Origin: Escherichia phage T4_ev151 | Sequence record: LR597660 | Length of the DNA stretch: 64,000 nt | Direction: 5' to 3' (one strand) | Shown: positions 11,551 to 19,245 of the stretch, piece by piece | How positions within the stretch are numbered: position 1 is the stretch's first letter | Layout of the letters: every line of letters begins with the position of its first letter | Position numbers and translations under genes: made by a program | The notes under the pieces: generated by a model | The model's database searches: none | What the model was told of the DNA's origin: nothing | What the model saw: only the letters and a program-made list of their open reading frames with translations

Positions 11551-11793
11551 TTATTCCTTAATTCCTAGTACTTGTTTAAAAGTCTCGTCGTAATCAAGAC
11601 TTTGGCCCGTTTGTTCTTTATGTTTGTATATAATATCACTTACTTCTGATAGCATATTTTTATATGAACGAGTTAAAGCAGATTTAAGCACGCTGTATCT
11701 ATCAGGAAATTTACCATGTTCATTATAATAAGCTATTGCTAATTCACGGACTGCCTTTTCAGCAGTCTCCATATATTCTTTACGCTTTGTCAT
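11551..11793 (-). CDS. Hypothetical protein (nrdC.1 position)
   Basis: ATG at 11793 with GAGAAGAA SD (track start is TTG). Confidence 0.5.
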
Positions 11794-12094
11794 TTTCTTC
11801 TCGGTCAAATCGGTGTTTACAATGGCGACATTTATAACGAAGAATACTAGTCTGCCAATGAATCAATTGAACCTGTTCAGTTCCACATTCAGGGCAATTA
11901 GGAACGTTTTTAGAAGCCCTTTCACGACGTTCAACCATGACCATTACAGAATCCCAATTAACAGGAGGGCTATAATCATCACAACCATAAATCTTTCCAC
12001 GCATTTCCAAATTGTCTTCTTCACCAGCCATAATAATTTTAATTAGACTAGAATTACTTGAAGCTACAATGTCTTCTAATAGACGCTTTTTCAT
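11780..12094 (-). CDS. Hypothetical zinc-ribbon protein
   Basis: 104 aa; CPECG...CRHCKH Cys pairs at C-terminus. Confidence 0.5.
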
Positions 12095-13020
12095 TTCAAT
12101 ACCTCAATAGCATTGCGTAAACCATTTGCTTTTGCATTAAGAGCTTTTAACAATTTGGTGTGTTCTGCAATTTGGGCTTCAACTTCAATCAAACGAGCAT
12201 TGAGATATTCGCGTTCTTCGCTCAAGTTATCAACCTTTTCTACTTTAGGCTCTTTTACAACTGTCTTATATGTATTAGGGTTCTTCAGTTTAATTAGAAT
12301 GCGTGAACTGTATAACATTGAACCATTATCTTCGGTTTCGTCATACATTTCCACTACGTCCATCATCTCCACCATCGTGCAGAGTTTATAAGACAACGAA
12401 CGAATAATTTTGTTGTGCTTATTAATTTCTCTAGCTGTCATGGTGCCGAGATTACGTGAGTAATAATAAGGAACCTGGATATTAATTAATACTGATGAAC
12501 CACCTGGCTTGTGTGTTACTTCATCAGCAATAACCCAATCCTTAACATGAACTGTATTTGTACGGTCATCGCCCGCGGTAAATAGTTTACGAGCATGCTT
12601 AAAAAGCATATTCACTTGGTCATTGAATTGACAAGCGAATTTATCAGCAAATTTAGTTTCGGGAATGGTAGATAACCAATCAGCCAAATGGGTCTTTTTA
12701 ACATCGTTAACAATAGTAAATTCAACCAAATCGGTTATAGATGTCGCAGTTTTAATGAATCTCGGCTTCATAAAGTTTTTAATGTTATCGCGAGCTACAG
12801 TAGAAGATAACATACGAGAACGTTTAAACCATTCAAGTAAATTGCCTAACGAATGAGAATAAGCGTTCTGAGTATCTTTACAGATATGATTTTCCTGGCC
12901 AACATACTGAAGGAAATCACGAAGAATATTATTGATTACTGCTCTGTGTCCTATCTGATAATCACGATGTTTAGTAATAAGACTGTCAAAATAATCAATA
13001 TAATGTTTACGAGTTTTCAT
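12091..13020 (-). CDS. Hypothetical protein with C-terminal coiled coil
   Basis: 309-aa ORF, ATG start; C-terminal heptad-rich region. Confidence 0.6.
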   Translation of the reverse strand: MKTRKHYIDYFDSLITKHRDYQIGHRAVINNILRDFLQYVGQENHICKDTQNAYSHSLGNLLEWFKRSRMLSSTVARDNIKNFMKPRFIKTATSITDLVEFTIVNDVKKTHLADWLSTIPETKFADKFACQFNDQVNMLFKHARKLFTAGDDRTNTVHVKDWVIADEVTHKPGGSSVLINIQVPYYYSRNLGTMTAREINKHNKIIRSLSYKLCTMVEMMDVVEMYDETEDNGSMLYSSRILIKLKNPNTYKTVVKEPKVEKVDNLSEEREYLNARLIEVEAQIAEHTKLLKALNAKANGLRNAIEVLK

Positions 13021-13074
13021 GTTCTTCTCACTTGGTTAATGGTTTATACTCCGAGCCATCCTTGGCTTTAAATT

Positions 13075-14076
13075 TTACTTAATTAACTGTAAAGCTTGTT
13101 CAAGACGATCCAGGCGATTAACAGATTCTTCCCAAATCCTTTTAGCCTGCTCATATTCTTTCTGTGCTTTATTAGAAATTTCTAGAACTTCTTTATAAGC
13201 TTTTTCTAATGCAATAACTTCTGGACGAATTTCTACCGGTTCAGGTGAATCATCAAGATTATCCATTAGTTCCTCAAGGGTAGTTTCTTCTTTAGGAGTA
13301 TTCACAATTTCATCACATTTTTGTTGGTAAATTTCTTTATCAGTCGGTGAGTACGCACACTTTACTTCACGAAGACTAACTACAATTTTATATCCTTCCC
13401 AACCGCATATATTCTTAAAAGGATAAGTATGAATATTTTCTACCGTTTCCATACAAAGTAATGCAGTCTCTAACTGACGAGTTGTATCACTAGCAATTGA
13501 GAAAAATTTATTAATGTTCTTTTGATTAGCTTCTGGTGTAAAAAATTCGTAATTCACAAAAACAGCTGCTTTATTTTTATCAAGTTCATATTCTTTTATG
13601 ATAATCATATCAGAAGCCAAAGGATGAATTTGACGATAATCGCCATAACATAATTTAGAAGCTGATTTTAGAATTTGCTTCTTGAAAAGTCTAAAATTAC
13701 TAATCCAACGACGAGTAAAAATATTCTCAGGGTCTTCTTTATTATTAAGATGATAAGAATTAACATCACCGAACCAACTGTATCCTACTACATCTTTGGT
13801 TCGTTTAATTTCTTTCCCAAAATTACTAAGAATATCTTGATTAACTAAATATGAAAGAAGACGAGACCCTTTAAAGGTTTCCTTAATATCATCTTTATCT
13901 ACACGACTAGAAATTTTATGAACTTCATGAATAAATTTGCTGGAAGAAACAATACTTGCATCAGTATTGTTGAGCCACTGATTGATAATAGAAAGAACAC
14001 TATTCTGACTAGACATAGGTTTAACTTTATCATCAATAACGCTATTGAATGATTTGATATATTCGTTACGAGTCAT
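13075..14076 (-). CDS. Hypothetical protein with C-terminal coiled coil (paralog family)
   Basis: Start moved to ATG 14076 (GAGGAG SD); track extension overlaps promoter; motif RRWISNFRLFKKQILKSASKL. Confidence 0.6.
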   Translation of the reverse strand: MTRNEYIKSFNSVIDDKVKPMSSQNSVLSIINQWLNNTDASIVSSSKFIHEVHKISSRVDKDDIKETFKGSRLLSYLVNQDILSNFGKEIKRTKDVVGYSWFGDVNSYHLNNKEDPENIFTRRWISNFRLFKKQILKSASKLCYGDYRQIHPLASDMIIIKEYELDKNKAAVFVNYEFFTPEANQKNINKFFSIASDTTRQLETALLCMETVENIHTYPFKNICGWEGYKIVVSLREVKCAYSPTDKEIYQQKCDEIVNTPKEETTLEELMDNLDDSPEPVEIRPEVIALEKAYKEVLEISNKAQKEYEQAKRIWEESVNRLDRLEQALQLIK

Positions 14077-14105
14077 ATTAATCTCCTCAGTAGAAAGTAA
14101 GAACA

Positions 14106-14134
14106 TTATACCACATCCTTGTGGCAAAGTAAAC
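14106..14134 (-). promoter_or_regulatory. T4-type early promoter
   Basis: Minus strand GTTTAC, spacer, TGGTATAATG. Confidence 0.55.
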
Positions 14135-15156
14135 TAGTTCAGTGCATTTAGTGCATTGTTCAATTTAGAACGTTGCTTCGTGAGATTTTTGACTTTTTCT
14201 TGAGCTTTTTCTAGCATCTTTTCAGCTTCTAGCACTTCATTAGTTGCTTTAACGAGTTCATCATCTACTGCCTTGATAGACTTCTCAATCGCATCCGCGT
14301 GCCATTTTTCAACAGGTTTAAGACTCGGATTTTCAGTAGGAAGAAAATTCACTTTATTGAATTTCCATGCATCTTTATTACCTGAGCTATACATCCAAAA
14401 TTTAGGATCGTTTGATGAGCAATTAGATAAATTTAAGTTATCTTGCACTTCCTGCTTTTTCTCTTGCGGGACTTCATCCTTTCTCAAAAAATCGTATTTA
14501 AATGAAACGATCATATCAAGTTCATACGTTGTTGTATGTTCCCAATTTCGCTCAAAATGAGGTAAAATCTTAGACTGAACAGCGGCAACAACATCCATAT
14601 ACTTAAATGCTTCTGTCAACTGTGATTTAAGGCATTCACAAATTGAAAGAGAATTTTTTGTATTAGGTTTAAAGCTAATTCGTGCAGTTCTATTATTTTC
14701 TTTTAATGGTCTTACTTCCATCTGAAGAGTATAACCATCAAATTTCAGGTTCTTTAAGTTAATATCAGAGCCTTTTAATCGACTAGCAGTAGACAAAATT
14801 TGCTTTAATTGTCTACGGAACAGAGCAATAAATCTCCATTCAATACGATAATGATTTGGATTGAAAAATCCAGATGATAAATCGACCTTACTTTGACCAA
14901 CGCCTTGAACAAATAGAGGATTTTTATAATCAATAGTTTTACAGAAATCGGTGAGCTGCTCACGAGCAGTCATTTGTGTAATATACCCTGCTTCATTAAA
15001 ATTACGCACCCATTCACTGCTATTCTTATACTTAAAGTGATGAATAGCATGATTAACTTTACCAAGGTCTAAATTATTTTCACACAAAAATGTCATAACA
15101 TCACGAGTATAGCTGGCATTACGAACCATATCTTCAATTTGAGAACGAGTTTTCAT
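14134..15156 (-). CDS. Hypothetical protein with C-terminal coiled coil (paralog family)
   Basis: 340 aa; motif RIEWRFIALFRRQLKQILSTASRL shared with neighbour; AAGGAA SD. Confidence 0.6.
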   Translation of the reverse strand: MKTRSQIEDMVRNASYTRDVMTFLCENNLDLGKVNHAIHHFKYKNSSEWVRNFNEAGYITQMTAREQLTDFCKTIDYKNPLFVQGVGQSKVDLSSGFFNPNHYRIEWRFIALFRRQLKQILSTASRLKGSDINLKNLKFDGYTLQMEVRPLKENNRTARISFKPNTKNSLSICECLKSQLTEAFKYMDVVAAVQSKILPHFERNWEHTTTYELDMIVSFKYDFLRKDEVPQEKKQEVQDNLNLSNCSSNDPKFWMYSSGNKDAWKFNKVNFLPTENPSLKPVEKWHADAIEKSIKAVDDELVKATNEVLEAEKMLEKAQEKVKNLTKQRSKLNNALNALN

Positions 15157-15164
15157 GGTGTTCC

Positions 15165-16052
15165 TTAAGATTTAAGTAAATCAACAATTTTAATTAACTT
15201 TTCACGCTCAGATTTAGCTTTACTACTCAGTCCAGATAGTCTGAAAATTTCATCATCATATTGTTGAATAGAAATATTCAGCTCTTCAATTTGCTTATTA
15301 AAATAATCAATTTGCTCAGAATGTTTTTCATTACTACGAACTGGTACAGGTTTTGTAGGCAATTTAGTTGAACTGGATTCATCCGGGCGATAAATTAAAA
15401 TACAACTTGAACCAATAGGGCATTTTGCACCAGATGAATATTCTAATGTTCCGGATTCTTTTAAAACTTCAAAAGCTAAACAGAGATGATGCCCCATATT
15501 AACATAATCTGTAGAGTGAGCTCTGATATAATAATCATCGCCACGAATACTAAATTTAAAGCATTTAAGGTCTTCTGTATTATTGGTCTTAAAAATCATT
15601 TGTTTATCTAGACCTTTAGCTAATCGAGCGCCTAATGCTAATAATCGTCGTTGATTTTCCCACAAATCTGCGATCATTTGGTCAAATGATAATTTCGGCA
15701 TTAGTCGACCATAAAGGTCATATCCTTTATTATAATTGCGAAGGATTTCACTCGCATTAATACGAGACAACGCTCCAATTTTATTAAGGGCTTTCATGAT
15801 GCGATTAGATAAACCCATTCCAGACCCATTTGTTCGTTGTAAATGTTTTTCTAATCCAAATCCAATATCAACTTTAAATTTATCTAAAATTTCAGCATGA
15901 ACATCTCTGTCAATAACATTCAAATCCAAAGTTGGGTTAAATCTATGAAAAAATTTATCTGGCTCTCCACGACGAAGTACAGTCCATTCATTTAATTTTT
16001 TATTAACTAAAGATTTAATTACTGCATTGACATTATTAATTACTACTGACAT
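15165..16052 (-). CDS. Hypothetical protein (possible third paralog)
   Basis: ATG at 16052 (track TTG at 16067); motif WENQRRLLALGARL. Confidence 0.55.
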   Translation of the reverse strand: MSVVINNVNAVIKSLVNKKLNEWTVLRRGEPDKFFHRFNPTLDLNVIDRDVHAEILDKFKVDIGFGLEKHLQRTNGSGMGLSNRIMKALNKIGALSRINASEILRNYNKGYDLYGRLMPKLSFDQMIADLWENQRRLLALGARLAKGLDKQMIFKTNNTEDLKCFKFSIRGDDYYIRAHSTDYVNMGHHLCLAFEVLKESGTLEYSSGAKCPIGSSCILIYRPDESSSTKLPTKPVPVRSNEKHSEQIDYFNKQIEELNISIQQYDDEIFRLSGLSSKAKSEREKLIKIVDLLKS

Positions 16053-16063
16053 ATTTTTCTCAC

Positions 16064-16468
16064 TCAATTTTCAATTTTACTAAATACACAGAATATGATG
16101 GAAAAGACTATATAAGCACCGCATACAGATTGAACTAATACCATTCCAAAGAACCAAACAATATTATCAAACAATGTCTGTTTTACGTCGAAAGGACGTA
16201 AACTTACAGTAATATTATCGCCTTTTTCTATTGATGAATACATCTCTGGTGAAATATATTCACTAAATCTATAACCGTCTTTGAGTTCATATACAGCAAT
16301 AAACGATAAACTAGACCCCTTTCCTTGAGTTCCTGTAAAGGTATTAACTACAGTAACATCATAATCTTTATAATGCATATAATCATTAATAGCATAATAA
16401 CCATATGCAATTATTATACATAAACAACATATCAATAAATTCAATCTTTTAATTATCAACTGTTTCAT
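16064..16468 (-). CDS. Membrane protein (two predicted TM helices)
   Basis: 134 aa; N- and C-terminal hydrophobic segments; ATG start. Confidence 0.55.
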   Translation of the reverse strand: MKQLIIKRLNLLICCLCIIIAYGYYAINDYMHYKDYDVTVVNTFTGTQGKGSSLSFIAVYELKDGYRFSEYISPEMYSSIEKGDNITVSLRPFDVKQTLFDNIVWFFGMVLVQSVCGAYIVFSIIFCVFSKIEN

Positions 16469-17079: not shown

Positions 17080-17109
17080 ATAGTACCACAGAGGAACGGT
17101 CTTGTAAAC
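17080..17109 (-). promoter_or_regulatory. T4-type early promoter with conserved leader
   Basis: Minus strand GTTTACA, 18 nt, TGGTACTAT, then conserved ACAACTATCAACTAC leader. Confidence 0.55.
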
Positions 17110-17496: not shown

Positions 17497-18216
17497 TTAG
17501 GATTCTTCTAAATGTCTTTTCTGAAAAGTTGATACCATACTACGATACGGTTCATTTGGATACCCGTGTTTTATAGCTTCCTTTGTAAATTTTCTCCATC
17601 CATATTTAGTTTCTTTCCAAAGCTCGAATAATTCATCTTCATATTGCCATATAGTTAAATGAGAACGCTTTGCAGCTTTAATTCCATTAATATGCTTTTC
17701 TTTTACTACAGGATTGCTTAGTTTCTTTTTAATAATATTACTAACTTTTCTAACAAAAACTGGGTCCTTATATCGTTGCGAAGTTTTTATTGAAGTGTTT
17801 AATTTAGCTTCCGGCGTGGATGTGACCTCTTTCATCTTTTTCTTCATATGCTGTATATGATTAGGATTTTTCCATAAATTTATAGAATGCTTTTTGCATT
17901 TTATCCTAGTTTCATCTGCAACCTTTCCTCCTTCACCCCCGTATGACAGGTTAACACAGTTTTTTCCATATTTCAATTTACCTGCCATGATATATAATAT
18001 TTCAGCTTGTACCATTTTATCATAATTATCAAAAACTTCTAAAACCGTTTTTGATAATATGTGGTCATTTGACACTTTTACACGTTCTATATAATTTCCA
18101 CTACCAACATACGAATCATTGATGTTATTAGTTATATGTCGACCATAATAATATTTCTTAATACCTGTCTTTAAATTTAATATTTCAGTTTTATAGATAG
18201 TAAAATATTTTTTCAT
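17497..18216 (-). CDS. GIY-YIG homing endonuclease (Seg-like)
   Basis: 239 aa; KKYYYGRH...SYVGSG GIY-YIG core near N-terminus; lysine-rich C-terminal region. Confidence 0.75.
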   Translation of the reverse strand: MKKYFTIYKTEILNLKTGIKKYYYGRHITNNINDSYVGSGNYIERVKVSNDHILSKTVLEVFDNYDKMVQAEILYIMAGKLKYGKNCVNLSYGGEGGKVADETRIKCKKHSINLWKNPNHIQHMKKKMKEVTSTPEAKLNTSIKTSQRYKDPVFVRKVSNIIKKKLSNPVVKEKHINGIKAAKRSHLTIWQYEDELFELWKETKYGWRKFTKEAIKHGYPNEPYRSMVSTFQKRHLEES

Positions 18217-19215: not shown

Positions 19216-19245
19216 ATAGTACCATAAAGCTTTATGCTTGTAAAC
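19216..19245 (-). promoter_or_regulatory. T4-type early promoter with conserved leader
   Basis: Minus strand GTTTACA, 18 nt, TGGTACTAT plus CAACTATCAACTG leader. Confidence 0.55.

Follow-up and report, generated by a model that had tools for sequence, protein, structure and literature searches.

The best described relative of the genes studied here is nrdC.5 of phage T4. A T4 clone with a deletion that removes nrdC.5 does not plate on Escherichia coli ECOR17; plating is regained after deletion of dsr1 from the host, and T4 nrdC.5 supplied in trans restores plating of the clone on MG1655 carrying dsr1, the gene of a sirtuin (SIR2-NADase) defence (PMC9391042). According to a 2026 preprint, Dsr1 recognises the major capsid proteins of phages through its tetratricopeptide repeat (TPR) sensor (PMC12803255). 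Other genes of the same block also act on host defences: gp49.2 inhibits OLD (PMC13096335), nrdC.1 inhibits Septu and bas37_0203 inhibits Druantia III (both bioRxiv 10.1101/2025.11.20.689424). We took the gene order of Bas37 from the supplement of the last study; by position and length (175 amino acids (aa), Bas37 annotation table) bas37_0203 is the ortholog of nrdC.8. The same study finds nrdC.3 to nrdC.6 all non-essential in T4 and Bas37 (bioRxiv 10.1101/2025.11.20.689424). Here we analyse a 64,000-nucleotide (nt) stretch of Escherichia phage T4_ev151 (sequence record LR597660), called the window below, which carries four consecutive open reading frames (ORFs) on the minus strand of 12091-16052. 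These are the orthologs of T4 nrdC.3, nrdC.4, nrdC.5 and nrdC.6. We read them as early counter-defence paralogs that have diversified within a tandem array, with a probability of roughly 0.7; the function is published for nrdC.5 and we infer it for nrdC.3, nrdC.4 and nrdC.6.

The window belongs to the genome of a Tequatrovirus (T4-like phage). In nucleotide sequence, 12091-16067 shares 97.8% identity with Escherichia phage vB_EcoM-fHoEco02, and 656 phage records have a match to this region; each of the four genes is found in 553-741 records. A preliminary description of this DNA had pointed to four consecutive ORFs of 295-340 aa, and both the span and the sizes agree with those found (Table 1). 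The orthologs were assigned by synteny with annotated relatives, including NC_054914: the array lies downstream of nrdC.10 to nrdC.7 and upstream of nrdC.2, nrdC.1 and the glutaredoxin gene nrdC. The nrdC.5 ortholog is 92.4% identical to T4 nrdC.5 over 340 aa, occupies the same place between nrdC.6 and nrdC.4, and is matched by PF23882 with 417.9 bits (cut-off 30) over profile positions 1-307 of 307. Both nrdC.3 and nrdC.4 match the common profile phrog_1435, and PF26897 has already been assigned to nrdC.4 homologs of 95% identity as well as to an nrdC.5::nrdC.3 fusion protein. The match of nrdC.6 to phrog_2257 spans residues 1-295, and PF26899 is annotated on its 97-99%-identical homologs. 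No sequence or fold match to any solved structure in the PDB was found for the array proteins.

Concerning the relationship among the four proteins, at least three had been described as paralogous, namely nrdC.4, nrdC.5 and nrdC.6, in which a basic motif had been recognised. BLASTP among the ORFs of the block gives a single significant pair, nrdC.3 and nrdC.4 (E-value (E) 2e-7, 26% over 226 aa), which hhalign also joins (probability 98%, E 1e-13); the closest relationship is therefore not within the trio first named. Comparisons of nrdC.3/nrdC.4 with nrdC.5 by hhalign have P-values (P) of 5e-4 to 1.3e-3 over 176-230 collinear columns, and the direct profile-profile values which link nrdC.5 and nrdC.6 to nrdC.3/nrdC.4 are suggestive only. 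A phmmer search with nrdC.5 against 1.84 billion representatives returned 12 matches, a narrow family, with none across families.

We then used iterative hidden Markov model (HMM) searches, with the coiled-coil tails cut from the seed alignments, against 1131 unique ORFs of at least 120 aa on both strands. The ORFs come from 71 loci, i.e. the GenBank phage loci plus 46 further loci from IMG/VR, which were anchored on the conserved neighbour nrdC.10. The searches from nrdC.6, nrdC.4 and nrdC.3 end in nearly identical sets of 79, 91 and 80 sequences, respectively, and all four window proteins are present in each set. The bridging steps run from nrdC.6 to a Karamvirus-type protein (5e-19), a Klebsiella-phage type (1e-5), nrdC.3 (6e-6) and nrdC.4 (1e-6); nrdC.5 is recruited by the three seeds at E 1e-5 to 4e-4 (1.4e-5 from the nrdC.4 seed). 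No decoy ORFs, including minus-strand ORFs, were recruited by these searches. All members are on the coding strand, and all but one are found 2-8 kb downstream of nrdC.10; the exception, a fHe-Yen9-01 protein, is just upstream. The family comprises 91 proteins and is specific to T4-like phages (Straboviridae) among the loci searched. Independent PHROG profiles give the same network: Roth19_324 matches phrog_31182, 33957, 26858 and 1435, and nrdC.5 matches phrog_12512. Similarity beyond the short motif, on which the preliminary description had made paralogy depend, is thus seen by BLASTP for nrdC.3/nrdC.4 only, whereas the profile methods join all four. Judged from these alignments, nrdC.3, nrdC.4, nrdC.5 and nrdC.6 are very likely all paralogs. 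Two further candidates were not taken into the family: nrdC.8 as a truncated member, which also has a helical C-terminus (hhalign P at least 0.06 against every family), and P0230, a different N-terminus on the exact nrdC.5 tail, which is on an 803-bp contig and is maybe an assembly chimera.

The family alignment has two conserved elements, both present in all four proteins: motif 1, and a basic helix followed by a G-D turn. The basic segments quoted earlier for nrdC.4, nrdC.5 and nrdC.6 are present as given, and nrdC.3 had been missed; its homologous segment FNDQVNMLFKHARKLFTAGDDRT falls in the same profile-alignment columns as the other three. The basic helix of nrdC.6 is nearly invariant across the nrdC.6 family. 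In the AlphaFold2 (AF2) models of nrdC.5 and nrdC.6 the order of elements is alike: helices, basic helix, beta-hairpin, helix, hairpin or unmodelled segment, linker and tail helix. The nrdC.6 model (overall predicted local distance difference test score (pLDDT) 78.2) matches uncharacterised proteins of ~304-374 aa in BFVD at E 7e-8 to 2e-3, which belong to T4-like phages of Acinetobacter, Klebsiella, Yersinia, Erwinia, Pectobacterium and Enterobacter.

All four proteins end in heptad-rich segments, as had been noted. A single unbroken heptad register covers the last 49-56 residues, and L/I/V/M/A/F/Y occupy 12/14, 11/14, 15/16 and 12/15 of the a/d positions (nrdC.3, nrdC.4, nrdC.5 and nrdC.6, respectively). 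Counted from the C-terminus, nrdC.3, nrdC.4 and nrdC.5 have the same register, and that of nrdC.6 is offset by one residue. A sliding heptad score, which is cruder, has its best window at the C-terminus in each of the four; out of 200 shuffles, the observed score is reached by none for nrdC.5 and nrdC.6, by 6 for nrdC.3 and by 30 for nrdC.4, for which the test is weak. AF2 predicts one 56-residue helix in nrdC.5 (284-339; block-mean pLDDT 81-91 over 291-340) after a disordered linker (199-280), and C-terminal helices at 242-271 and 277-294 in nrdC.6. The tails have the predicted traits of a coiled coil, a long uninterrupted helix and hydrophobic periodicity at a/d. The four tails also have a common terminal signature, L-x-x-[A/I]-[L/I/V]-x-x-[L/I]-[K/N], which is found in the last 16 residues of 62 of the 88 full-length family members and of 4 of the 764 other ORFs of the same loci; the signature was written after viewing the sequences, so these counts are descriptive and not a test. 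Conservation is higher in the tail than in the body for 10 of 12 ortholog pairs.

The preliminary description had proposed comparing copy number in related phages, and it varies from zero to four among the 46 nrdC.10-anchored loci: 10 have no full-length family member, 23 have one, one has two, nine have three and three have four. Four copies are the maximum and are confined to close relatives of T4_ev151. Different members are missing in different phages. Mosigvirus Mizar contains nrdC.6-, nrdC.5- and nrdC.3-like genes and lacks nrdC.4; phage C6 contains nrdC.6-, nrdC.5- and nrdC.4-like genes and lacks nrdC.3. In Tequatrovirus Bas43 nrdC.8 adjoins nrdC.3, the sole array gene kept. In ACG-C40 a deletion runs from the nrdC.5 N-terminus to the nrdC.3 C-terminus and nrdC.6 is the only copy kept, and in Pinarejo only the last 47 codons of nrdC.6 remain. 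Salmonella phage Manna has an in-frame nrdC.6(1-266)::nrdC.4(251-333) chimera (Manna_094, L020 3715-4752), in which the nrdC.6 body is followed by the nrdC.4 linker and tail; its junction coincides with a 21-nt microhomology (QQxxDEI) found twice in the window (Table 1).

The nrdC.3 gene is dimorphic within Tequatrovirus. The window allele has 59-61% aa identity to the T4/T2 allele (T4: L008 7001-7927) and is ~75% identical to the Mosigvirus gene, while the flanking genes are 91-100% identical; the synonymous divergence (dS) from T4 is ~1.1 for nrdC.3 against 0.04-0.3 for neighbouring genes. Based on these values the dimorphism looks like mosaic allele replacement. The gene-wide ratios of nonsynonymous to synonymous divergence (dN/dS) against T4 are 0.28, 0.20, 0.29 and 0.08 (nrdC.3 to nrdC.6), so all four genes are kept by purifying selection. 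Copy-number change, deletions and chimeras, and allele replacement are dynamics typical of accessory or arms-race genes.

Rearranged products and a local repeat were also observed. The ACG-C40 sequence (L019 4305-4716) and P0119 (299 aa) are deletion products in which nrdC.5 N-terminal sequence is joined to nrdC.3 C-terminal sequence; the fusion junction of P0119 reads KFNKVN/MLFKHARKLF. The nrdC.6 ortholog of Shigella phage Sf25 (gp220; P0120, 378 aa) contains an internal tandem duplication of ~83 residues (IRAHSTDYVNMGHH...NKQIEEL repeated). Within the window, a 19-nt stretch across the start codons is common to nrdC.3 and nrdC.5 (13009-13027 vs 15145-15163, 17/19 or 89%); their first four codons, ATGAAAACTCGT (MKTR), are identical, and nrdC.4 opens with MTR. 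This stretch may be a trace of duplication.

The genes had also been called early, and three lines are consistent with this: a T4 early-type promoter-like site in the nrdC.5/nrdC.4 gap directly upstream of nrdC.4, similar sites at nrdC.8 and nrdC.10, and the literature, in which nrdC.5 is termed an early gene (PMC9391042). The two additional sites, at 17080-17108 and 19216-19244 on the minus strand, read TTTACA, 17 nt, TG-TACTAT and lie upstream of nrdC.8 and nrdC.10. A GAGGAG ribosome-binding site precedes the ATG of nrdC.4 at 14076. Longer in-frame starts exist at 14106 and 14127, and are unlikely to be used; the ATG at 14076 is favoured because both the promoter-like site and GAGGAG lie in the nrdC.5/nrdC.4 gap.

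Table 1. Positions of the array genes, their conserved elements and associated features. Positions are those of the window, except where an L-number names the locus.
Feature	Position	Strand	Evidence
nrdC.3 ortholog, coding sequence, 309 aa	12091..13020	-	ORF; synteny; phrog_1435 E 1e-115; Pfam Phage_T4_Y04OP
nrdC.4 ortholog, coding sequence, 333 aa	13075..14076	-	phrog_1435 E 2e-166; PF26897 on homologs
nrdC.5 ortholog, coding sequence, 340 aa	14134..15156	-	Pfam DUF7235 (PF23882) E 3.7e-125
nrdC.6 ortholog, coding sequence, 295 aa	15165..16052	-	phrog_2257 E 4e-153; Pfam Phage_T4_Y05B (PF26899) on homologs
Motif 1, nrdC.3, aa 61-83, LLEWFKRSRMLSSTVARDNIKNF	12772..12840	-	Family alignment, hhalign
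Motif 1 equivalent, nrdC.4	13819..13887	-	Family alignment, hhalign
Motif 1 equivalent, nrdC.5	14944..15012	-	Family alignment, hhalign
Motif 1 equivalent, nrdC.6	15732..15800	-	Family alignment, hhalign
Basic helix and GD turn, nrdC.3, aa 128-154, FACQFNDQVNMLFKHARKLFTAGDDRT	12559..12639	-	Aligned with the other three motifs
Basic helix and GD turn, nrdC.4, aa 122-149, RRWISNFRLFKKQILKSASKLCYGDYRQ	13630..13713	-	Profile alignment
Basic helix, nrdC.5, aa 106-133, EWRFIALFRRQLKQILSTASRLKGSDIN	14758..14841	-	Profile alignment; AF2 helix 105-128
Basic helix, nrdC.6, aa 128-152, ADLWENQRRLLALGARLAKGLDKQM	15597..15671	-	Profile alignment, AF2 model
C-terminal heptad helix, nrdC.3, aa 259-309, end LRNAIEVLK	12094..12246	-	Register, heptad score
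C-terminal heptad helix, nrdC.4, aa 283-333, end LEQALQLIK	13078..13230	-	Register, heptad score
C-terminal heptad helix, nrdC.5, aa 284-340, end LNNALNALN	14137..14307	-	Register, heptad score, AF2 model
C-terminal heptad helices, nrdC.6, aa 242-295, end LIKIVDLLKS	15168..15329	-	Register, heptad score, AF2 model
T4 early-type promoter-like site, TTTACT, 17 nt spacer, TGgTATAAT	14105..14133	-	Consensus scan, 10/12 matches, extended -10; consensus match only
21-nt microhomology, QQKCDEI in nrdC.4	13306..13326	.	Direct repeat D4, 81% identity to 15246-15266
21-nt microhomology, second copy, QQYDDEI in nrdC.6	15246..15266	.	Direct repeat D4
~260-aa upstream protein in four loci	L015 12811-13584; L017 11552-12340; L012 12630-13421; L014 12098-12886		

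We propose that repeated duplication of one family, restricted to T4-like phages (Straboviridae), would have given the tandem array. Each protein would consist of a weakly conserved N-terminal helical part, a conserved core (motif 1, the basic amphipathic helix ending in the G-D turn, a beta-hairpin and a helix), a variable and largely disordered linker, and a heptad helix of 49-56 residues with the terminal signature. The genes would be expressed early and be dispensable on laboratory E. coli. The fast-evolving body of each copy may bind and neutralise a different host immune protein, and the slowly evolving tail would form a coiled coil that makes the protein oligomeric. Variable host targets had been suggested for such genes; this has experimental support for nrdC.5 from the T4 rescue on Dsr1 cells (PMC9391042), and for nrdC.3, nrdC.4 and nrdC.6 it is an extension from nrdC.5. 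An anti-defence role of these three is argued from their homology to nrdC.5, from the published anti-defence block, and from copy-number change, allele replacement and the faster divergence of the body than of the tail. Since the TPR sensor of Dsr1 recognises major capsid proteins, a sensible mechanism for nrdC.5, put forward as a conjecture, would be an early protein which occupies Dsr1, e.g. at its TPR sensor, ahead of the late capsid trigger. More tentatively, and with the odds against it, the family might be a modular counter-defence scaffold, in which the tail serves oligomeric avidity or docking to a common partner and the body is retargeted after each duplication. If so, a different immune system would be inhibited by each of nrdC.3, nrdC.4 and nrdC.6 and by each relative that is present as a single copy in phages of Klebsiella, Enterobacter, Yersinia and Acinetobacter, and natural tail swaps such as nrdC.6::nrdC.4 of Manna would be a route to new inhibitors.

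Several results weigh against an array of counter-defence paralogs. Within the array the experimental support covers nrdC.5 alone, not nrdC.3, nrdC.4 or nrdC.6, and the Dsr1 rescue comes from the T4 protein, to which the window ortholog is 92% identical. The main text of the HIDEN-SEQ study names only nrdC.1 and bas37_0203 as new anti-defence factors in this block (bioRxiv 10.1101/2025.11.20.689424). The gene-wide dN/dS against T4 gives no sign of positive selection. Direct profile-profile comparisons with nrdC.6 are weak (P 3e-3 to 1e-2), and nrdC.6, the most divergent array member, is the weakest link, because only its residues 79-168 align to the family profile. HMM iteration seeded with nrdC.5 gave no expansion among the 1131 ORFs of the 71 loci. 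The AF2 model of nrdC.5 is poor overall (pLDDT 58.6), and Foldseek found no meaningful match to it in BFVD, probably due to the poor model. The structure predictions used here are monomer models, which cannot show oligomerisation of the tails. Three of the four proteins are basic (isoelectric point (pI) about 9.1), which would suit nucleic-acid binding too.

The weak values for nrdC.6 and nrdC.5 bear on whether these belong to the family at all. If nrdC.6, and possibly nrdC.5, were unrelated to nrdC.3/nrdC.4, the tail and motif would be convergent and the profile link a product of drift; pairwise BLAST is indeed not significant for these pairs, direct hhalign P is only 5e-4 to 1e-2, Pfam and PHROGs keep separate families, and the nrdC.5 seed did not expand. 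Such a coincidence is very unlikely in view of the convergence of three independent tail-less seeds on the same 79-91 sequences, with no member on the wrong strand or outside the locus and a bridging E of 1e-5 or lower throughout, apart from nrdC.5, which enters at ~1e-4 when nrdC.6 or nrdC.3 is the seed. Moreover, both motifs align whichever proteins are compared, the models of nrdC.5 and nrdC.6 agree in their order of secondary-structure elements, and the 'ABC' profile ranks nrdC.6 above all 18 control proteins. The basic charge bears on function. A housekeeping-type accessory role, such as nucleic-acid binding or early modulation of host transcription or metabolism, with an indirect anti-Dsr1 effect, would fit the basic bodies of nrdC.3, nrdC.5 and nrdC.6 (pI 9.2-9.4), the basic amphipathic helix as the most conserved element, and the absence of an nrdC.5 mechanism from the published literature. 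We regard it as rather improbable: nrdC.4 is acidic (pI 5.75), the genes are non-essential, often deleted or replaced and missing from 10 of 46 related loci, the sole known phenotype of any member is defence-specific, and the surrounding genes are anti-defence genes. The tails, for their part, could also be explained if the four proteins were subunits of one hetero-oligomeric complex with one joint function. They share their register, counted from the C-terminus, as well as the terminal signature, and are the best-conserved part of the proteins, and the genes are adjacent and co-oriented. Against this, copies are lost independently (nrdC.3 only in Bas43, nrdC.6 only in ACG-C40, no nrdC.4 in Mosigvirus and no nrdC.3 in C6), half of the T4-like loci surveyed have a single copy, and nrdC.5 alone on a plasmid is enough for plating on Dsr1 cells (PMC9391042); a joint complex is accordingly unlikely. 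Counter-defence paralogs, each with its own target, remain the preferred reading of the array.

Concerning names and neighbouring genes, the product name 'thioredoxin' on the array ORFs in GenBank is a carry-over from the locus name 'nrdC.x'. A thioredoxin or glutaredoxin identity was rejected: none of the four proteins has a thioredoxin-family Pfam match, and the AF2 models of nrdC.5 and nrdC.6 consist of helices and hairpins. The 'thioredoxin' label is seen on nrdC.1 to nrdC.11 in many deposited genomes, and mobD.1 is once labelled a molybdopterin biosynthesis protein; such labels are annotation errors spread from locus names. Between nrdC.9 and nrdC.10 the window contains a 239-aa ORF (17497-18216, minus strand), which NC_054914 and Bas43 lack at the same place. 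It has no Pfam match at E 1e-3; in T6 the annotation of the feature beneath the adjacent match reads 'putative site-specific intron-like DNA endonuclease', and the ORF is probably a Seg-type homing endonuclease insertion. nrdC.2 (11780-12094, minus strand, 104 aa) contains two CxxC pairs and has weak zinc-ribbon Pfam matches, all below the gathering scores. In the record of T4 strain GT7 (L008 2960-3289) the best nrdC.8 match has 109 aa (94% over 102 aa), whereas the window and Bas43 both have 175 aa; the GT7 record may contain a frameshift or truncation here. Directly upstream of their single family member, Karamvirus, Moonvirus and Klebsiella phage Roth19 encode a conserved ~260-aa protein (phrog_4750, Karamvirus annotation); in Tegunavirus fHe-Yen9-01 the same protein is ~1.5 kb upstream, with several small ORFs between.

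The genes themselves are long-known T4 ORFs, one of them with a published role and two already grouped in databases. Going by the literature and libraries searched, it appears to be new that nrdC.3 to nrdC.6 and several PHROGs are treated as one family with a tail signature; the pattern of copy number and the chimeras found in nature also appear new. The finding is a useful lead and no new kind of system. T4 is the reference phage, and paralogy to an anti-defence member gives a concrete, testable list of three T4 candidates and ~90 relatives, which span T4-like phages of E. coli, Klebsiella, Enterobacter, Yersinia and Acinetobacter; the variable body and conserved tail show which part to mutate or swap. 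Such accessory genes limit or extend host range, and this is relevant to the choice and engineering of therapeutic T4-like phages.

Among known systems, the nearest is T4 NrdC.5 itself (UniProt Y05A; PF23882; anti-Dsr1, Srikant, Guegler and Laub, eLife 2022): the ORF at 14134-15156 has the same length and the same neighbours, and the other three window ORFs are remote paralogs of it with less than 25% identity. PF26897 (Phage_T4_Y04OP)/phrog_1435 already unites nrdC.3 and nrdC.4, including both window proteins. Databases keep apart nrdC.5 (PF23882, phrog_2351), nrdC.6 (PF26899, phrog_2257) and at least six PHROGs (23608, 31182, 12512, 26858, 33957, 25705), which form one family here. DSAD1 of SPbeta-like phages is a functional analogue, described as silencing a SIR2-NADase abortive-infection protein by binding the sensor region. 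It differs from nrdC.5 in phage group and in target (the DSR2 sirtuin defence, not Dsr1); the two are likened by function, and a similar binding mode for nrdC.5 would be conjecture. The array lies inside one of the T-even anti-defence clusters (the dmd-tifA-adfA 'anti-TA (toxin-antitoxin) island', the gp49.2/nrdC.1/nrdC.8 block and the internal proteins IPI-III), which consist of non-essential early genes that vary between close relatives and counter one host system each. TifA, Dmd, AdfA, Gp49.2 and NrdC.1 are not described as mutual paralogs in the portions of the literature consulted, whereas the four proteins of the array, of ~300-340 aa, are very probably paralogs with a common modular architecture.

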